Below are positions 2,114 to 36,595 of a stretch of 64,000 nucleotides of DNA, piece after piece (position 1 is the first letter of the stretch; every line of letters starts with the position of its first letter). This DNA comes from an uncultured Gammaproteobacteria bacterium (lineage in GTDB: Bacteria > Patescibacteriota > Microgenomatia > UBA8517). The DNA is taken from positions 118,127 through 182,126 of the forward strand of contig CAYSAY010000001.1 in NCBI GenBank assembly GCA_964429215.1. The letters are read 5' to 3'. The notes below the pieces were generated by a model that did not search any database, was not told the DNA's origin, and saw only the letters and a list, made by a program, of their open reading frames with translations. The translations under genes and the position numbers were made by a program.

Positions 2114-3904
2114 ATGAAAAGAACATTGGTTAAAGAAACAATAGAAAAAATTGATGAAACAATCAAGCTACAAGGCTGGGTTAGTACTATTCGTGACCAT
2201 GGAAAAATTACTTTTATTGATCTTAGAGACAGAACCGGAATTATACAATGTGTAGGAAGTAATTTAGAAAAAGTTTCTTTGGAAAGTGTTATTGAGATAG
2301 AAGGTAAAGTTGTCGGAAGACCTGAAAAATTAATAAATAGAGAAATTGAAACTGGCAAGGTCGAATTGCAAATTGAAAAAATGAATATAATTTCTTCTGC
2401 AGAAGAGTTACCTTTTGACATGAGCAAGGATGATTTAAATGTTGATTTGCCTGTTTTACTAGACAATAGAGCTTTAACATTAAGACATTCAAAAATTAAG
2501 GCAATATTTAAAGTTCAAGAAGTAGTAATCGATTCATTTAGAAAAGCTCTTCAGTCAAGAGATTTTACTGAATTTCAAGCTCCAAGCATTATTTCTTCCG
2601 CACCTGAAGGTGGTGCAGAAATATTTGAAGTAAAGTATTTTGGGCATAAGACTTATTTGGCTCAGAGCCCACAACTTTATAAATCTTTGCTTGTAAGTAT
2701 TTTTGAACGCGTCTTTTCTGTAAATAAAGTATTTCGAGCTGAACCATCAGTTACTACTCGTCATTTAACAGAGGTTGTAAGTTTAGATGCAGAGTTTGGA
2801 TTTATCGAAGATTATATGGAAGTCAAAGAAATGGCTGAATATACAATAAAATTTATTCTTGACGAAGTTTCTAAAAAGTGTGCAAAAGAATTAGAAATGT
2901 GGGGAGCTACAATTCCGTCTGTCTCTAAAAGTATACCAATTATTAAATTGAGAGATGCTCAAAAAATTATATTTGAAAGAACCGGAAGAGATTGTAGAGA
3001 AGAAAAGGACTTTGCTCCGGAAGATGAAAGAGAAATTTGTAGATGGTCAAAAGAAGTCCACGGTTCTGACCTTGTTTTTGTAAGTCACTATCCTACAAAG
3101 TATAGACCATTTTATACTTATCCTGATCCAGAAGATCCAGAATTTAACATGGGATTTGATTTAATTGGAAGAGGTACAGAGTGGATGACGGGCGGAAGAA
3201 GAATTCATGATTACAAAACACTTTTAGAACATGTTAAAGAATGGAACATCACTCCAGAAAATATTGAACTTTATTTGCAAGCATTTAAATATGGTACGCC
3301 TCCTCTTGGAGGATTTGCATTTGGTGCTGAAAGAATCACTATGCATATTTTAGGACTCAAAAATGTTCGCGAGGCTTCACTTTTCCCAAGAGATATGGAA
3401 AGAGTTGACATCAGATTATCTAAAACAGATAAAAAAGTAGAAGGGAATGATGTATATGGAAATATTTTGGAGTTGCTTGATGAAAATGAAATTGAATATC
3501 AAAAATATGAACATGAGCCAGTGTTTACAAGTGAGGAAGCTGCAAAGATAAGAGAAACAAGTATTCACCAAGGAGCTAAAGCTTTGGTTTTGCAGGCTGA
3601 CAAAGAATTTGTAATGTTAGTTTTGCCTGCTGATTTAAAAGCAGATTTGGATATATTTAAAAAGGCTAAATCTTTTAAGAAACTTGTAATGGCATCAAAA
3701 GAAAGTGTTAAAGCTAAAACTGGGCTAGAAGTTGGTTGCATTCCACCATTTGGATCATTGTTAGGATTAAAAACATTTGTAGATTCTAGATTGTCTGAAA
3801 ATGATGAGATTGCCTTTAACGCTGGGAGACATGATAAATCAGTTAAAATGAACTATAAAGATTATATAAAGGCAGAAAACCCTGAAGTTATTAACTTCAA
3901 CTAA
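2114..3904 (+). CDS. aspS: Aspartyl-tRNA synthetase (archaeal/short type, no GAD insertion) fused in-frame to a C-terminal YbaK/ProX-type aminoacyl-tRNA deacylase domain
   Basis: N-terminal OB fold. Class II motifs FRAE...R, GGFAFGAERITMHILG and the LFPRD tail, which ends the AspRS core near aa 435. Residues about 450-596 (NILELLDENEIEYQKYEHEP...KALVL...GCIPPFG) align with E. coli YbaK ([21 protein letters not shown]...KTLLV...GGISPLG). No in-frame stop or convincing internal start lies between the two parts. Confidence 0.8.
   Translation: MKRTLVKETIEKIDETIKLQGWVSTIRDHGKITFIDLRDRTGIIQCVGSNLEKVSLESVIEIEGKVVGRPEKLINREIETGKVELQIEKMNIISSAEELPFDMSKDDLNVDLPVLLDNRALTLRHSKIKAIFKVQEVVIDSFRKALQSRDFTEFQAPSIISSAPEGGAEIFEVKYFGHKTYLAQSPQLYKSLLVSIFERVFSVNKVFRAEPSVTTRHLTEVVSLDAEFGFIEDYMEVKEMAEYTIKFILDEVSKKCAKELEMWGATIPSVSKSIPIIKLRDAQKIIFERTGRDCREEKDFAPEDEREICRWSKEVHGSDLVFVSHYPTKYRPFYTYPDPEDPEFNMGFDLIGRGTEWMTGGRRIHDYKTLLEHVKEWNITPENIELYLQAFKYGTPPLGGFAFGAERITMHILGLKNVREASLFPRDMERVDIRLSKTDKKVEGNDVYGNILELLDENEIEYQKYEHEPVFTSEEAAKIRETSIHQGAKALVLQADKEFVMLVLPADLKADLDIFKKAKSFKKLVMASKESVKAKTGLEVGCIPPFGSLLGLKTFVDSRLSENDEIAFNAGRHDKSVKMNYKDYIKAENPEVINFN
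3461..3901 (+). other. YbaK/ProX-like trans-editing deacylase domain within the aspS ORF
   Basis: Alignment to YbaK over its whole length, including the YEHxP, KxLVL and G(C/G)I(P/S)P(F/L)G motifs. Confidence 0.7.
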
Positions 3905-23500: not shown

Positions 23501-23515
23501 TACTTTCTTCTTTTG

Positions 23516-23587
23516 TGACGCTTACGGGAATCGAACCCATATTTCTTGGATGAGAACCAAGTGTCCTAGCCGTTAGACGAAAGCGCC
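23516..23587 (-). tRNA. tRNA-Glu (anticodon CUC)
   Basis: Manual fold. Acceptor GGCGCUU/AAGCGUC. D stem GUCU/GGAC. Anticodon stem CUUGG/CCAAG with loop UUCUCAU. T arm AUGGG-UUCGAUU-CCCGU. Discriminator A. Confidence 0.75.
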
Positions 23588-23697
23588 GTAGTTTGTATTA
23601 TATAGCATCAGCTACAGAATCGCATTGCTCTGTAAAAGTAGATATCGTAAGTGAGCTTCAGAATATTTTTCTTGTTTCTGCTAAAATATGGCTAATT

Positions 23698-25173
23698 ATG
23701 GCAATTAGAAGAATACTTGATTACACAGAAGAACCTTTGCATAAATCAGCAGAGAAAGTTGTGGGGTTTGGAAAGGAAACTAAGACTATTGTATCTGACT
23801 TGATAGACACTTTGTATTCATCCACAGGCGTTGGTCTTGCTGCTCCTCAAATTGGTATAAATAAACAAATTTTTATATATGATCCAAAAAGAAAGCTTGA
23901 CGAAAAAATTTATAACTATAAAGTACTTATCAATCCAAAAGTAACAATATTAGGCAATGAAAAAAGACAATCAAAAGAAGGTTGCAAAAGTACGCCTGAT
24001 TTGTTTGTTAATTTAAGAAGATACTCAAAAATAGTTGTAGATGGATTTGATGAAAACGGAAACCCAGTTAAATTTGATTCAAAAGGTATTGAAGCACAAG
24101 TAATTCAACACGAAGTAGATCATCTGACAGGTAAATTAATATTTGAACATGAGTCAATAAATGACAAAGATAAAAGTTTATACAACGATTATGTTTCAGA
24201 CACAAAAAACATTCTCGACTCACTTAAATTTGCAAATGAAATTAAAGATGGTCAGATTTTGATAACTATTTCAAACAATAATACTATTCATTTATTCAAA
24301 GACGGAGATCAAATTCAAATGTATTTTTCAGACAAGGGTAAATTTAGTGGGATTATGTCTAGAATTGACATCAAGCACCCATTAAGACTAATTGGTATTT
24401 ATACGCAAGCAATGATGTTAAGTTTAGTTTTTTCAGATATTCCAGAGAAAGTATATTTAATTGGTTTTGGTGGAGGTCGAATTCCAATGATCTTTCATCA
24501 TTATTTTCATAAAACTGTTATTGAGAGTACTGAAATAGACAACGAGGTAATTGATATATCCAAAAAATATTTTGGCATATCTTTAGATGAAAGAATGATT
24601 GTAGAAAATACTGACGGTAGAAGCTATCTACAAAATCAAAATAGTGATAAAAAATACGATATCATAATTGTTGATACTTTCTCTGGATCAGGTGTACATC
24701 CTTTTCCGTTTTCTACTATTGAATTTTATGATTTGTGTAAAAATCATCTTTCTCAAAATGGAGTTGTTACAACTAACTTAGTTGAAACGGATCCGCTATT
24801 CCAACAAAAAGTAAAGACATTTATTGAATCTTTCAGGTATGTTTATGAGTTTTTGTATGAAGGAACTCATGTATATTTTGGAAGTGAGTCCGTAAATATA
24901 AAAATTGAAGATTTTGTAAAGAAAGCCAAACAAATTGATAAATTTTATAATTTTAGGTTTCCTTTAGATTGGCTAGCCAAAAAAGTTAATATTGTCAAAA
25001 AATCAGATAGTGCAAGCAATGATATCGTAAATGAAGAATTGCTAAGTGACAAATCAAATCCTTCTGAAAAAATAAATATATTTTCTGGAGTTTCCAGAAA
25101 TGATCTTTGTCCATGTGGTTCAGGCAAAAAATTTAAACGCTGCCATCTTTTAAAAATAATTGATATAGTCTGA
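23698..25173 (+). CDS. def: Peptide deformylase fused to a spermidine-synthase-like class I methyltransferase-fold domain and a C-terminal SEC-C zinc-binding motif
   Basis: PDF motifs GVGLAAPQIG, EGC and QHEVDHLTG at aa about 1-160. A GFGGGRIP...E.D...DGR...YDIIIVD Rossmann/SpeE-like region follows. The final residues are DLCPCGSGKKFKRCH (SEC-C). The start is chosen at the Met (MAIRRILDY), because the track start at 23593 is 6 nt from the tRNA. Confidence 0.75.
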   Translation: MAIRRILDYTEEPLHKSAEKVVGFGKETKTIVSDLIDTLYSSTGVGLAAPQIGINKQIFIYDPKRKLDEKIYNYKVLINPKVTILGNEKRQSKEGCKSTPDLFVNLRRYSKIVVDGFDENGNPVKFDSKGIEAQVIQHEVDHLTGKLIFEHESINDKDKSLYNDYVSDTKNILDSLKFANEIKDGQILITISNNNTIHLFKDGDQIQMYFSDKGKFSGIMSRIDIKHPLRLIGIYTQAMMLSLVFSDIPEKVYLIGFGGGRIPMIFHHYFHKTVIESTEIDNEVIDISKKYFGISLDERMIVENTDGRSYLQNQNSDKKYDIIIVDTFSGSGVHPFPFSTIEFYDLCKNHLSQNGVVTTNLVETDPLFQQKVKTFIESFRYVYEFLYEGTHVYFGSESVNIKIEDFVKKAKQIDKFYNFRFPLDWLAKKVNIVKKSDSASNDIVNEELLSDKSNPSEKINIFSGVSRNDLCPCGSGKKFKRCHLLKIIDIV

Positions 25174-25177
25174 TTTC

Positions 25178-25206
25178 TTGACAATGACCTGTCTGGGGTT
25201 TAAAAT
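25178..25206 (+). promoter_or_regulatory. Near-consensus sigma70 promoter (TTGACA-17 nt-TAAAAT) upstream of greA
   Basis: TTGACA at 25178-25183, a 17-nt spacer, then TAAAAT at 25201-25206. It sits directly after the def-fusion stop and about 150 nt upstream of the greA ATG. Confidence 0.6.
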
Positions 25207-32145: not shown

Positions 32146-33285
32146 TTAATTTTCGTAATACTTTTTGCCTTTTAATTTAACTGGCAAGAAACTTTCATTG
32201 TTGTACATTTTGTAATCTTTTCCATATCCTGTATCTTTCATTAATTTAGTAGTGGGATTTCTTATTTTTAATGGAATTGGAAGGTTTCCAAAATTATCAA
32301 TATCCTTTAATGCCGATTCTATGGCATTGTATGCGGATCTGTTTTTCTTTGCAGTGGCGAGATAGATTACTCCGTGGGCAAGATTAATTCTACATTCTGG
32401 AAGTCCTATTATTTGGCATGCCTTAAATACTTCGTTTGCTACAACTAATGCAGTAGGTTGTGCCATTCCAATATCCTCTGATGCAAAAATTACCATACGC
32501 CTTGCAATATATAAAGGATCTTGACCAGCAGAAATCATTCTGGCTAAATAATAAATTGCCGCATCAGGGTCTGACGACCTCATCGATTTAATAAAGGCAG
32601 AAATTGTGTCGTAGAAATTATCACCATTTTTATCAAAAGATAGGGCTCGTTTTTGTAATGCTTGTTCAATATCTTTTGTTAACAATAGTTGATTGTTTGC
32701 AAGTTGAGATGCAATTTCTAAAGTGTTTATCAAAATTCTTGCATCACCGTTACTAGACGCAACTAAAAATTCAAGTGCTGTTTTATCAATTTTAATTTTA
32801 AGATGTTTGGTAACTTTTTTTGAAATATTTAATAGATTATTTTCGTCTAATTGTTTTAAAATTAAAATACGACACCTTGAAAGAAGTGGAGAAATGACTT
32901 CAAACGATGGATTTTCTGTAGTTGCTCCAATTAAAATTATATCTCCGTTTTCTACATGAGGAAGCAGTTTGTCTTGCTGAGCTTTATTAAACCTGTGAAT
33001 TTCATCTAAGAAAATAATTGGTTTCTCATTTATAACTGCTTCAATATCTTTAATTTTTGTATTAACTGCAGAAAATTCATAAAATTTTCTATTAAGCTCT
33101 TTTGCTATTATTCTTGCAAGTGTAGTTTTACCTACTCCAGAAGGACCCCAGAGGATCAAGGATGGAAGATTAGTTACTTGATTAGATAGAAGTTTTGTAA
33201 TAATTCCGTTTACTCCAACTAAGTGTTCTTGGCCAATAAAATCTGATAATTTAGAAGGTCTTAATATTTCTGCTAGTGGTTGCAT
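32146..33285 (-). CDS. rarA: Replication-associated recombination protein A (RarA/MgsA AAA+ ATPase)
   Basis: LRPSKLSDFIGQEHL...LILWGPSGVGKTTLARIIA. Walker B FLDEIHRFNKAQQD. Confidence 0.9.
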   Translation of the reverse strand: MQPLAEILRPSKLSDFIGQEHLVGVNGIITKLLSNQVTNLPSLILWGPSGVGKTTLARIIAKELNRKFYEFSAVNTKIKDIEAVINEKPIIFLDEIHRFNKAQQDKLLPHVENGDIILIGATTENPSFEVISPLLSRCRILILKQLDENNLLNISKKVTKHLKIKIDKTALEFLVASSNGDARILINTLEIASQLANNQLLLTKDIEQALQKRALSFDKNGDNFYDTISAFIKSMRSSDPDAAIYYLARMISAGQDPLYIARRMVIFASEDIGMAQPTALVVANEVFKACQIIGLPECRINLAHGVIYLATAKKNRSAYNAIESALKDIDNFGNLPIPLKIRNPTTKLMKDTGYGKDYKMYNNESFLPVKLKGKKYYEN

Positions 33286-33344
33286 ATAATTAAGTATAGT
33301 CCGAACATTAAACGAAGTAAAGGAAAATATAGTACAATTTCAGT

Positions 33345-33950
33345 ATGTTGGGAACTACGATATTGGAAGAGAGAGAATCGAAATTTAATGGCCACCTCCG
33401 TGTTTTTAAAACTTGGGGGATGGGTACATATATTCAAGCAGGGGGACTTACGCAATCTGGTGGAATTGTGGAATCTATATGGCGAAGCACGCTTCGCCAG
33501 ATAAAGAGTGCAGAGTACATAGTACAAAATATATTAATACTTGGGCTTGGAGGAGGAACACTTGCTAAGTTACTTCGAAAGAAATATCCTAACGCGAAAA
33601 TTACAGGGGTAGAAATTGATCCAATAATGATTGAACTTGGCAAAAAATATTTAGATTTAGACAAATACAATATTGATATAAAGATTCAGGATGCAAGAAA
33701 ATTTAAGTTTGGTAAATATGATTTAGTGATTGTTGATATGTATAACGGAGATAATTTTCCAAAAGAATTTGAAAGTGATGAGTTTTTAAAAAAACTTACA
33801 AAATTTAAACTGACAATAATTAATAGACTCTATTTTGGAGATAAAAGACCAGATACTGTAAGGTTTGGAAATAGATTAGAAAAAATTTTCAAAAATGTGA
33901 ATTGGTTTTATCCAGAAGCAAATTTGATGCTCATCTGTTACAATAGTTAG
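33345..33950 (+). CDS. Spermidine-synthase-like class I methyltransferase-fold protein
   Basis: ILILGLGGGTL...ITGVEIDPIMIELGKKY...YDLVIVDMY. It is paralogous to the C-terminal domain of the def fusion at 23698-25173. Confidence 0.55.
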   Translation: MLGTTILEERESKFNGHLRVFKTWGMGTYIQAGGLTQSGGIVESIWRSTLRQIKSAEYIVQNILILGLGGGTLAKLLRKKYPNAKITGVEIDPIMIELGKKYLDLDKYNIDIKIQDARKFKFGKYDLVIVDMYNGDNFPKEFESDEFLKKLTKFKLTIINRLYFGDKRPDTVRFGNRLEKIFKNVNWFYPEANLMLICYNS

Positions 33951-33958
33951 GCTTTATT

Positions 33959-36595
33959 ATGTTTAAAAATTTATTCAAATTCTTAGATCTAAACCAAAAA
34001 GACGTTGACAGATTGAGTAAAACTGTAGCTTTGATAAATGCTTCTGAAAGTAAATACAAAAAAACTAAACTTGAGGATTTAATAAAAGAATCTGAAAAAC
34101 TTAAAAAACTAATTGCTAGTGGCCAACAGCTAACAGCTGTATTACCTTTCGCTTTTGCACTAGCTAGAGAAACTTCATTTAGAATGTTGGGTCAGAGACA
34201 TTATGATGTTCAATTAATGGCGGCAACTGCACTTTTTGAAGGTAAGATAGTAGAACAAAAAACAGGTGAAGGTAAAACATTATCAGCTGTTCCAGCACTT
34301 TATTTGAGAGCATTGACTGGAAAAGGAGTTCATTTGGTTACGGTTAATGATTTTTTGGCACGTCTTGGTGCAGGTTGGAATGCCCCAATATTTGAAAAGT
34401 TAGGTTTAACAGTTGGAGTTATAGTTCAAGAAAATAAGTCATATGTTTATGATGCAAAATTTACAGATAATACTCATGGAGATGAAAGACTTTCTCATTT
34501 AAGACCATGCTCCAGAAAAGAAGCGTATGCAGCGGATATAACTTATGGAACGAATAATGAATTTGGTTTTGATTATCTTCGAGATAACATGGTTCAAAGT
34601 TTGGACGAGATGGTACAAAGGGAACATTATTTTGCAATTGTTGATGAGGTTGATTCTATTTTAATTGATGAAGCTAGAACTCCACTTATTATATCTGCAC
34701 CTGATTCTGAACCTACACAGAAATATTATCAGTTTGCCCAAATAATTGATAAGTTGCAACTTGATACTGATTTTAAAATTGATGAGAAGAGTAAAAGTGC
34801 ATCGTTAACTGAACAAGGAATTTCAAAAGTAGAAAAAGTATTAGGAATTGATAATTTATATGAAAAAGATTTTGAAAGTATTCATCATATTGAAAATGCG
34901 CTTCGGGCCAGAAGTTTATATCTAAAAGATAAAGATTATGTCGTTAAGGATAACCAAGTAATTATCGTTGATGAGTTTACAGGGCGACTAATGAACGGTA
35001 GAAGGTGGTCTGATGGATTACATCAAGCAGTTGAAGCAAAAGAAGGAGTTGTTATTCAACAGGAGAGTAAAACCTTAGCAACTATTTCATTTCAAAATTA
35101 TTTTAGAATGTATGATCATTTGTCAGGTATGACAGGTACAGCAGTGACTGAGGCTGAAGAATTTAAAAAGATATATAAACTTGAAGTTGTTGCAATACCA
35201 ACACATAGAGATATGGTTAGGGTTGATCAGGGGGATGTAATTTATAAAACTTTATCAGGTAAATATAGCGCAATTGCCGATGAAATTGCTGAAAAATATC
35301 AAAGTGGACAGCCAGTGCTTGTTGGAACGACTTCTATAGAAAAGAATGAAATAATTAGCAATTTATTAAAGAGGAGAAAAATTCCACATAACGTATTGAA
35401 TGCTAAAAATCATGAAAAAGAAGCAGAAATAATTTCCAATGCTGGAAAACTTAAAGCAGTTACAGTTGCTACTAATATGGCAGGAAGAGGAGTCGATATC
35501 ATTTTGGGTGGTGCTAAACCAGAACTTAAAAGGGACATATCTAAATGGGAGAAAAATCATCAGGAAGTAATTGAAACAGGTGGACTTCATGTTATTGGAA
35601 CAGAAAGACATGAATCAAGAAGAATAGATAATCAGTTAAGAGGAAGAGCTGGAAGACAGGGCGATAAAGGATCGTCAAAGTTTTATCTTTCTTTGGAAGA
35701 CGATTTAATGAGGATTTTTGGTGGTGAACAAATAAAATCGTTAATGGACAGGCTAAATATTCCAGATGATCAACCAATAGAAAATCCTTTAGTTAGTCGT
35801 GCAATTGAACAGTCTCAGGTGAAAGTTGAAGGTTTTCATTTTGATACTAGGAAAAGACTTGTTGAATTTGACGATGTTGCTAATCAACAAAGAGAAATAA
35901 TTTACAAACTTAGGAGAAAAGTTTTGGAAAGTGAGAATTTGAAAGATGAAGTTTTGGAGAAATTAGGAAAGCATGCTGGAAGAATTTCTCAAAGTGAAGT
36001 GGATGTAATTGACTATGATATGGTTGTTGCAGGATTTTTAGAAGTTGTTCCGTTTGATGAAAATTCAACTAAAGCATTTAGGAAAGAATTAGAAAAAAGA
36101 GAATCTCCACAAGCAGTTGAAGAATTTATTGAAGCTGTTTTTGCTGATGTTCATAAAAATAGGGAAACTCAGGTAGGGGATGTTACTATGCGCCAAATTG
36201 AAAAATATTCATATCTTGGGGCGATTGATCATCACTGGATAGAGCATATAGATACAATTGATGATCTACGTGAAGCTATTGGACTTCGTGCATATGGACA
36301 GCGTGATCCATTGGTTGAGTTTAAAGGCGAGGCATATAACATGTTTGAGAGCTTGCAAAACAAAATTGATGAAGAAGTGGTGAGAAGGTTGTTTAGAATT
36401 GGAGTTAATCAACAGCCACAAGAAATTCCTACAAACTTAGTTGAAAATGTTGATACTAAAGATGGTACTGGATTAAAACAGAGTAAATCAATAAATCAGT
36501 CATCCAATAATTCAGTAAAACTGGGTCGCAATGATCCATGTTGGTGTAAAAGCGGCAAAAAATGGAAAAAATGTCACTTTCCAAAAGTTGGATAA
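33959..36595 (+). CDS. secA: Preprotein translocase ATPase SecA
   Basis: DEAD motor motifs, preprotein cross-linking domain, and the C-terminal SEC-C zinc motif CWCKSGKKWKKCH. Confidence 0.95.
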   Translation: MFKNLFKFLDLNQKDVDRLSKTVALINASESKYKKTKLEDLIKESEKLKKLIASGQQLTAVLPFAFALARETSFRMLGQRHYDVQLMAATALFEGKIVEQKTGEGKTLSAVPALYLRALTGKGVHLVTVNDFLARLGAGWNAPIFEKLGLTVGVIVQENKSYVYDAKFTDNTHGDERLSHLRPCSRKEAYAADITYGTNNEFGFDYLRDNMVQSLDEMVQREHYFAIVDEVDSILIDEARTPLIISAPDSEPTQKYYQFAQIIDKLQLDTDFKIDEKSKSASLTEQGISKVEKVLGIDNLYEKDFESIHHIENALRARSLYLKDKDYVVKDNQVIIVDEFTGRLMNGRRWSDGLHQAVEAKEGVVIQQESKTLATISFQNYFRMYDHLSGMTGTAVTEAEEFKKIYKLEVVAIPTHRDMVRVDQGDVIYKTLSGKYSAIADEIAEKYQSGQPVLVGTTSIEKNEIISNLLKRRKIPHNVLNAKNHEKEAEIISNAGKLKAVTVATNMAGRGVDIILGGAKPELKRDISKWEKNHQEVIETGGLHVIGTERHESRRIDNQLRGRAGRQGDKGSSKFYLSLEDDLMRIFGGEQIKSLMDRLNIPDDQPIENPLVSRAIEQSQVKVEGFHFDTRKRLVEFDDVANQQREIIYKLRRKVLESENLKDEVLEKLGKHAGRISQSEVDVIDYDMVVAGFLEVVPFDENSTKAFRKELEKRESPQAVEEFIEAVFADVHKNRETQVGDVTMRQIEKYSYLGAIDHHWIEHIDTIDDLREAIGLRAYGQRDPLVEFKGEAYNMFESLQNKIDEEVVRRLFRIGVNQQPQEIPTNLVENVDTKDGTGLKQSKSINQSSNNSVKLGRNDPCWCKSGKKWKKCHFPKVG

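Follow-up and report, generated by a model that had tools for sequence, protein, structure and literature searches.

We analysed a 64,000-nucleotide stretch of DNA, hereafter the window, from contig CAYSAY010000001.1 (assembly GCA_964429215.1; positions 118,127 to 182,126), which belongs to a Patescibacteriota genome of the Microgenomatia. At 23698–25173 it encodes a fusion protein of 491 amino acids (aa) in which a peptide deformylase (PDF), a middle domain with the fold of spermidine synthase (SpeE) and of the C-terminal methyltransferase domain of human METTL13 (MT13-C), and a SecA-type metal-binding domain (MBD), SEC-C, follow one another in a single polypeptide. All the single domains are of known kinds, and the combination and the activity that it implies are new.

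Gene structure and domain layout

The features of the fusion gene and of its upstream border are as follows; pLDDT denotes the predicted local distance difference test score of the AlphaFold2 model.

23698–25173, plus strand: whole fusion gene, PDF + MT13-C/SpeE-fold + SEC-C, 491 aa plus stop (translation, Pfam, AlphaFold2)
23698–24162, plus strand: PDF domain, residues 1–155 (PF01327, TIGR00079, NF001159, Foldseek)
23827–23850, plus strand: PDF motif 1, GVGLAAPQ (checked by translation)
23977–23985, plus strand: PDF motif 2, EGC, in the context EGCKS (checked by translation)
24109–24123, plus strand: PDF motif 3, HEVDH, in the context QHEVDH (checked by translation)
24163–24240, plus strand: long linking alpha-helix, residues 156–181 (DSSP; pLDDT at least 95)
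24241–24396, plus strand: SpeE-type N-terminal beta-sheet subdomain, residues 182–233 (four strands, 185–224, in the model)
24397–24999, plus strand: Rossmann-type core of seven beta-strands, residues 234–434 (PF01564, 55 bits; 5wcj profile match)
24463–24480, plus strand: G-loop GFGGGR (translation)
24532–24534, plus strand: Post-I residue E279 (alignment)
24613–24618, plus strand: D306-G307 (alignment)
24673–24675, plus strand: Post-II residue D326 (alignment)
24775–24777, plus strand: N360 (alignment)
25000–25095, plus strand: low-complexity flexible linker, residues 435–466 (pLDDT 70–85, little secondary structure, poor conservation)
25096–25149, plus strand: SEC-C domain, RNDLCPCGSGKKFKRCHL (PF02810; fits CXCXSX6CH)
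23515–23587, minus strand: tRNA-Glu(CTC) directly upstream of the fusion (ARAGORN, Rfam)

Three Pfam families were matched by the translated gene, namely PF01327 (Pep_deformylase; residues 3–151, 151.2 bits against a cut-off of 22.8, E 2.2e-44), PF01564 (Spermine_synth; residues 244–376, E 1e-14, far above the curated cut-off with its 55 bits) and PF02810 (SEC-C; residues 467–484, 40.2 bits against a cut-off of 20.4, E 3.1e-10). The AlphaFold2 model, built with 121 homologues, had a mean pLDDT of 93.3 and a predicted TM score (pTM) of 0.88. A first-pass annotation made from the letters of the window had described the same three parts, and all of them were confirmed: the N-terminal PDF by PF01327, TIGR00079 and NF001159 over their cut-offs and by translation of its three motifs, the SpeE/class I methyltransferase fold by PF01564, by Foldseek matches to the SpeE fold and by the 5wcj profile match, and the SEC-C tail resembling that of the SecA in the window by PF02810 and by translation of both tails.

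The open reading frame (ORF) opens with its first TTG at 23593, reaches its first ATG at 23698 and ends at 25173. The JGI and ENA gene calls use the TTG and thus give a protein of 526 aa with a 35-aa extension (23593–23697). We rejected this start, because the TTG lies 6 nt past the tRNA-Glu(CTC) gene and the extension falls outside the PF01327 match and is missing from P0002, a homologue of 489 aa and 86% identity that starts at the equivalent of ATG 23698. Since the PDF profile also begins at residue 3, ATG 23698, the start used in the first-pass annotation, is probably correct and the public TTG call probably mis-called. The same fusion ORF was called, unsplit, on two contigs, and a survey of JGI, ENA, Logan and NCBI recovered the same three-domain protein in about 34 clusters at 33–95% identity. 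As these clusters come from independent assemblies, the fusion is not an assembly artefact.

Upstream of the gene, Rfam recognised tRNAs only and no regulatory RNA such as a riboswitch for S-adenosylmethionine (SAM), and the scan for promoters and terminators gave nothing decisive there, with one weak promoter-like site at 23574–23601. Between the stop codon of the fusion and greA there is a near-consensus sigma-70-like promoter, TTGACA-17-TAAAAT (11/12), at 25178–25206; this strong promoter-like site suggests that the fusion and greA may be transcribed separately.

The PDF domain scored 117.2 bits with TIGR00079 (cut-off 103.95) and 139.1 bits with NF001159 (cut-off 125), and Foldseek aligned it with solved PDFs at target-normalised TM scores of 0.86–0.94 and root-mean-square deviations of 1.5–2.9 Å over 155–183 columns. 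Its catalytic residues are kept in 33–34 of the 34 fusion homologues over which they were counted; judged by these residues, the domain is intact and under selection as an active deformylase. It shares with Escherichia coli Def, a type 1B enzyme, all three metal-binding and catalytic motifs and a fold that superposes with the C-terminal helix included (TM 0.87–0.92), but in the fusion this helix is not terminal and runs into an extension of 330 residues, and the fusion gene differs from type 1B PDF genes in having no fmt neighbour in the window. In helix 156–181 the C-terminal helix of the PDF, which is type-1B-like, carries on as the N-terminal helix of the methyltransferase part; standalone members of the methyltransferase family open with a homologous helix, W-x3-N-L-x2-I-x2-R-L. 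No second PDF gene was found within the 64-kb window.

The middle domain: family, fold and active-site residues

An exhaustive profile search of 1.84 billion representatives with the middle domain recovered, at E ≤ 1e-30, 964 clusters (50% identity). Most of them are standalone proteins, either of about 336 aa with SEC-C or of about 295 aa without it, and fusions are a minority. The signatures of the family are SGIMSRID..P, YTQAMM, GFGGGR(I/V)P, ESTEID, (E/Q)DGR, VD-x-F/Y-x-G-x-G-x-H-P and TNL. Residue conservation was counted over 121 sequences of 33–95% identity, in which M220, S221, D224 and P228 of the beta-subdomain motif SGIMSRID..P are each at least 93% conserved.

Two independently built family profiles both had 5wcj, the METTL13 C-terminal domain, as their top match in the PDB (E 5e-26 and 1.8e-30; 95 and 110 bits, which is 33–35 bits over the next match), followed by the uncharacterised 3gjy at E 1e-19 and by true aminopropyltransferases at E 5e-17 or weaker. 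In a pairwise comparison the middle domain from the window and METTL13-C were 29% identical over 148 aa (E 1e-19), and among characterised or solved proteins MT13-C has the closest sequence relationship to the family. METTL13-C is a SpeE-like enzyme that trimethylates the alpha-amine of Gly2 of eEF1A after removal of the initiator Met; its activity requires E524 and D575, with contributions from D551, D577 and N647 (PMC6109062). In the bacterial family E279 corresponds to E524, D306-G307 to D551-G552, D326 to D575 and N360 to N647, each at least 95% conserved (E/D at the position of E279 in 121/121, D/E at that of D306 in 120/121, D326 in 121/121 and N360 in 116/121). Whether the SAM-binding residues might be degenerate had been raised in the first-pass annotation; they are conserved, and the full set of SAM-binding and catalytic positions (G256, G260, E279, D306, G307, D326 and N360) lies at or above 95%.

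The G-loop GFGGGR is one residue shorter than the GGGDGG of spermidine synthase (SpdS) and lacks its Asp, as does GLGGGS of METTL13; the HMMER alignment to SpeE loops (GGGDGG in 6qmm, GGGEGA in 1uir and 3anx) accordingly takes a one-residue gap. An Arg follows the family G-loop in 119 of the 121 sequences. The Asp of the SpdS loop disfavours the carboxylate of SAM and thereby selects decarboxylated SAM. Of the Post-II Asp pair that binds the diamine (D173 and D176 in the human enzyme), the first is present as D326 throughout, and the second is replaced by F or Y in 116 of the 121 sequences.

The likeness to MT13-C extends from sequence affinity to the same SpeE-like fold of seven beta-strands, a G-loop of the same length without the SpdS Asp, and conserved catalytic equivalents; MT13-C also works on N-termini whose Met has already been processed, in keeping with the association of the family with PDF and methionine aminopeptidase (MetAP). 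In contrast, MT13-C is eukaryotic, is fused to a lysine methyltransferase domain instead of a PDF and has no SEC-C; its G-loop is followed by Ser, where the bacterial family has the conserved Arg; and the SpeE-type N-terminal beta-subdomain kept in the bacterial family is absent from the 5WCJ construct. The middle domain is, on this evidence, a distinct family that has a SpeE-like fold and whose active-site pattern and sequence affinity resemble those of MT13-C. It looks catalytically competent and SAM-using, and we infer that the group transferred is methyl.

A different reading of the same fold would be a genuine aminopropyltransferase, that is, a polyamine synthase, which was fused to a PDF by chance and makes polyamines near the ribosome. 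PF01564 and the NCBIfam polyamine aminopropyltransferases are indeed the top named matches of the middle domain, the domain has the full two-subdomain fold of spermidine synthase (PF01564, TIGR00417; 1INL, 2O06, 1UIR) with the Post-I acidic residue, the DG motif and the first Post-II Asp, and D326 falls on the catalytic Asp of SpdS in the alignment. Foldseek ranks 1–4 were taken by 1uir, 3gjy and 3anx (E 2e-14, 270–300 columns), and 5wcj came at rank 5; the aminopropyltransferases of Thermus and Pyrococcus and 3gjy stand just above 5wcj because the family keeps the whole two-subdomain SpeE architecture. However, the equivalog profiles stay far under their cut-offs (TIGR00417, 53.3 against 249.55 bits; NF002010/PRK00811, 53 against 260), and even the best NCBIfam model for the domain, NF003380/PRK04457, reaches 101.4 bits against a cut-off of 304. 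The G-loop lacks the Asp of SpdS and has the conserved Arg after it, F/Y takes the place of the second Post-II Asp, the family profile favours METTL13-C by 35–45 bits, and there is no polyamine logic in the associations with PDF, MetAP and SEC-C, which are fusion partners and gene neighbours unlike those of SpeE. We therefore regard a polyamine synthase as quite improbable.

We consider it highly improbable that the middle domain is a pseudo-enzyme, catalytically dead and serving as a scaffold or for oligomerisation, that places the PDF on the ribosome through SEC-C. The rigid arrangement of PDF, helix and methyltransferase domain in the model (pTM as given above) would suit such a role, and aminopropyltransferases oligomerise through their SpeE-type N-terminal beta-subdomains, but the near-invariance of the SAM-binding and catalytic positions and the existence of standalone forms without PDF both argue for a working enzyme. 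A bacterial comparison is offered by PrmA, the L11 methyltransferase, the sole prokaryotic N-alpha methyltransferase named in a 2023 review (PMC10293735). It is likewise a seven-beta-strand enzyme that methylates the alpha-amine of a protein (PMC10293735), but it belongs to an unrelated subfamily, acts on free L11 and carries neither PDF nor SEC-C.

Public names do not follow these relationships. NCBI calls soluble members of 295–336 aa (P0063, P0089, P0109 and the plasmid matches H1–H15) 'fused MFS/spermidine synthase', without any major facilitator superfamily (MFS) domain being present, and the JGI labels are 'spermidine synthase' or 'peptide deformylase'. The family is probably mis-annotated systematically in public databases. 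The plasmid matches, considered as possible close relatives on plasmids of cultured bacteria, were rejected, being just 26–32% identical members of the broad family.

SEC-C tail, distribution and genomic neighbourhoods

The SEC-C motif proper, CPCGSGKKFKRCH, occupies residues 471–483 of the 491 and fits CXCXSX6C[HC], and the SecA of the window ends in RNDPCWCKSGKKWKKCHFP (36527–36583). The family profile matches the SecA MBD structures 1sx0 and 1ozb and YchJ 9l6b. CXCXSX6CH is the consensus of SecA-like metal-binding domains, and those of SecA and YecA/AscA bind ribosomes and SecB (preprint 10.1101/2020.07.21.215244). The fusion resembles SecA, YecA/AscA and YchJ in placing this motif at the extreme C-terminus after a flexible linker, but in SecA and AscA the MBD is borne by a translocation ATPase or a chaperone, whereas here it is borne by enzymes of N-terminal maturation. 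To our knowledge, SecB is generally absent from Patescibacteria.

An enzyme of N-terminal methionine excision that carries SEC-C has a precedent in the MetAP of NF008970/PRK12318, of which profile positions 2–20 align with fusion residues 466–484; the difference is that its SEC-C is N-terminal and sits on MetAP, not PDF, without a methyltransferase domain. Fusion residues 463–490 also match the C-termini of PADLOC 'E2'/'E1-E2' and PDC-S12 candidates (E 7e-6 to 5e-4), and SecA-type MBDs are thus found on ubiquitin-like conjugation defence proteins as well.

A scan of 185,579 species representatives, based on a 16-sequence alignment and the pattern FGGGRIPM, gave 16 confirmed loci, one of them a fusion; the specific family is thus uncommon among genomes, and phage contigs are almost devoid of it. 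Full-text literature searches returned no paper describing a PDF-methyltransferase-SEC-C protein or a bacterial MT13-C homologue; the earlier impression that the fusion is unusual and uncharacterised thus holds. In a crude neighbour-joining distance tree the fused and standalone forms interleave, the fusions P0026, P0027 and P0029 being nearest to standalone P0076, and P0025 and P0030 nearest to P0042 and P0049. Fusion monophyly was unsupported in this tree, and the interleaving suggests that the PDF and the unit of methyltransferase and SEC-C (MT-SEC-C) may have been fused and split repeatedly. Fusions of MetAP with the methyltransferase were absent from the best 150 representatives; the longer P0246 and P0256, one of which weakly matches MFS, are not of this kind, and P0224 is a double methyltransferase.

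The standalone MT-SEC-C is encoded directly behind a type I MetAP (TIGR00500, 283 bits) in nine loci, with the genes overlapping by 4–7 bp or the MetAP directly upstream: L003 (7216–9014), L004 (5246–6999), L008, L012, L035, L037, L041, L045 and L048. In L012 an Rce1-like ORF stands between the two. A second recurrent neighbourhood, which the first-pass annotation did not contain, is a same-strand cassette of an HSP90 paralogue, a tetratricopeptide repeat (TPR) protein and the fusion as its last gene, seen in five independent loci (L001/L034, L026, L027, L032 and L033), with coordinates as follows.

L001, 4453–9452: HSP90/TPR cassette
L026, 6157–11467: HSP90/TPR cassette
L027, 6088–11476: HSP90/TPR cassette
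L032, 2775–7984: HSP90/TPR cassette
L033, 2079–7367: HSP90/TPR cassette

The HSP90 paralogue of these cassettes (841–877 aa) is matched over its full length by PRK14083 and HtpG and has about 250 extra C-terminal residues, and the TPR protein has 338–420 aa; the pairing is reminiscent of the Hsp90/TPR co-chaperone pairs of eukaryotes. In L001/L034 the order is MetAP, HSP90, TPR and fusion, and the standalone MT-SEC-C adjoins the same HSP90 and TPR partners in L036 and L038. The GC content of the cassette loci ranges from 0.32 to 0.71. Because the HSP90 paralogues are just 30–45% identical between loci, the linkage is, as far as these comparisons indicate, old or repeatedly selected. From its position behind MetAP and its frequent pairing with the HSP90 and TPR genes, the MT-SEC-C family seems to be part of a module of nascent-chain processing and folding.

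Mobile and conflict-related genes were also seen beside the cassettes (L026, 873–4901 and 12132–19130; L030, 6012–6920; L033, 136–1620; L036, 1598–2374), including phage-type integrases, RadC, an RHS-repeat toxin, a NYN nuclease, IS1595/DDE transposases and an AbiEii-like AAA_21 ATPase, which hints that the HSP90/TPR module moves horizontally. With these flanking genes, with the patchy phyletic spread over so wide a range of GC content, and with the place of the window copy at a rearranged tRNA-adjacent spot that lacks the fusion in a close relative, one might see here a mobile conflict or stress module, in which an HSP90-like ATPase, a TPR protein and a PDF-MT-SEC-C effector act on foreign or damaged proteins and the window copy is a stray effector. 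We give this only a slim chance, because PADLOC families matched the cassette proteins in generic GHKL or SEC-C segments only, HSP90/HtpG profiles match the ATPase over their full length, and the contexts of the window, L024 and L025 consist of housekeeping genes. A known anti-phage defence system was rejected, the PADLOC matches being to generic segments only, as was a phage origin, with one weak partial relative in 2.9 million viral contigs.

The window itself has a GC content of about 32%, and its SecA shares 84–85% identity with that of metagenome-assembled genomes from 'Candidatus Woesebacteria' and the 'Microgenomates group', which places the organism in the Patescibacteria. The gene order around the fusion is diacylglycerol kinase, PAP2, Lon, tRNA-Glu (minus strand), fusion, GreA and class I lysyl-tRNA synthetase. 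In the relative L028, whose SecA is 82% identical, the order is diacylglycerol kinase, PAP2, Lon, tRNA-Glu, a GDSL lipase gene and GreA, without the fusion, and the tRNA-Glu(CTC) between lon and greA lies on the plus strand (3122–3196), as against the minus strand in the window. The lon–greA interval is a hot spot of local inversion and gene replacement. Since the syntenic site of L028 holds the GDSL lipase and the tRNA is flipped, the fusion appears to be an accessory acquisition in this Patescibacteria lineage and not a fixed housekeeping gene.

One further methyltransferase gene lies outside the fusion.

33345–33950, plus strand: class I methyltransferase of 201 aa, outside the fusion, from the broad SpeE-like superfamily

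The first-pass annotation had taken its product for a stand-alone paralogue of the middle domain. This did not hold: the two are 30% identical over 97 aa (pairwise E 0.01), and the small protein has the G-loop GLGGGT, QDAR in place of DGR, and neither SEC-C nor the family motifs. Its best PDB matches are 3gjy (E 5e-5) and 5wcj (E 3e-4), and NCBIfam PrmA models, which had no match on the fusion, reached E 0.02–0.04 on it. The order RarA (minus strand), SpeE-like methyltransferase of 198–211 aa and SecA is kept in the window (32146–36595), L028 (6882–12637) and L029 (7874–12628). The relatives that share it belong to the Candidate Phyla Radiation (CPR), with SecA identities of 70–82%; they have no fusion at the syntenic site, and their small methyltransferase is uncharacterised. 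A close paralogue was therefore rejected in favour of a separate conserved CPR gene.

A proposed role in N-terminal protein maturation

Considering these results together, we propose, at about even chances, that the fusion is a ribosome-docked, bifunctional enzyme of N-terminal protein maturation that deformylates and then N-methylates its substrates. In this model SEC-C would dock the fusion close to the exit tunnel of the ribosome, as for SecA and YecA/AscA, and the PDF domain would take the formyl group off the nascent formyl-methionine. The neighbouring SAM-using domain would then methylate the freed alpha-amine, either of Met1 or, after the action of methionine aminopeptidase, of residue 2. 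In other organisms the MT-SEC-C unit would do the same as a separate protein encoded behind MetAP, often with the HSP90 paralogue and the TPR protein. A ribosome-tethered enzyme that processes or modifies N-termini had already been suggested in the first-pass annotation; the suggestion has gained from the affinity to METTL13-C, the conserved residues, the MetAP operons and the ribosome-binding MBDs, and it stands as a prediction from sequence.

Several observations weigh against this proposal. MT13-C itself is highly substrate-specific and not a general enzyme, and its peptide-contact residue D577 corresponds to F328 here (F in 92 and Y in 24 of the 121 sequences), so that substrate recognition probably differs from that of MT13-C. 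By structure alone the middle domain fits aminopropyltransferases as well as METTL13, and sequence does not tell a methyl transfer from an aminopropyl or aminocarboxypropyl transfer. MetAP adjacency is confined to one high-GC, Solirubrobacterales-like lineage, and members of the family from Thiotrichaceae, Alphaproteobacteria, Chloroflexota and Bryobacterales have no links to PDF, MetAP, HSP90 or TPR genes, many of them lacking SEC-C too. No MetAP, HSP90 or TPR partner was found within the 64-kb window.

The middle domain might instead be a substrate-specific, post-translational methyltransferase acting on the N-terminus or a lysine of one dedicated protein, with PDF and SEC-C merely providing co-localisation or docking to SecB or another partner; N-termini would then not be methylated generally during translation. 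Candidate substrates are EF-Tu (the bacterial counterpart of eEF1A), ribosomal proteins, and clients or partners of the HSP90 paralogue. MT13-C is strictly specific for eEF1A (PMC6109062), and EF-Tu would be an attractive candidate in that bacterial EF-Tu N-termini appear to resemble the MT13-C recognition sequence; the window holds no EF-Tu gene in which the N-terminus could be checked. The substrate groove, moreover, is strongly conserved across phyla (VD-x-F/Y-x-G-x-G-x-H-P, T340, F343 and Y344), as would be expected for one substrate, and the HSP90-paralogue and TPR cassette occurs in at least seven independent loci. Nevertheless, we consider such a specific enzyme unlikely, because PDF and MetAP, the partners in fusion and operon, are general co-translational enzymes and fit action on fresh N-termini better, no candidate substrate gene is conserved as a neighbour, and the HSP90 and TPR partners lack conserved N-termini.

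Bacterial co-translational N-terminal maturation, as commonly described, consists of deformylation, Met excision and, rarely, acetylation. As a bolder form of the proposed deformylating and N-methylating enzyme, we tentatively suggest that the fusion may be the first bacterial N-terminal methyltransferase of the METTL13-C type, joined in one ribosome-docked polypeptide with a PDF and acting co-translationally, and that MT-SEC-C, MetAP, HSP90 and TPR may form a hitherto unrecognised, horizontally mobile maturation-chaperone module; this goes further than the enzyme activity itself and is correspondingly doubtful. PDF is an antibiotic target, and variant PDFs with large appendages are for that reason of practical interest. 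The family assignment also corrects the public annotation as 'peptide deformylase', 'spermidine synthase' or 'fused MFS/spermidine synthase'. If the proposal is true, there would be an extra enzymatic step at the ribosome exit, the MT13-C family would gain a bacterial root, the SecA-type MBD would be a portable ribosome anchor for processing enzymes, and a bacterial HSP90 paralogue and its TPR partner would be tied to nascent-chain processing.

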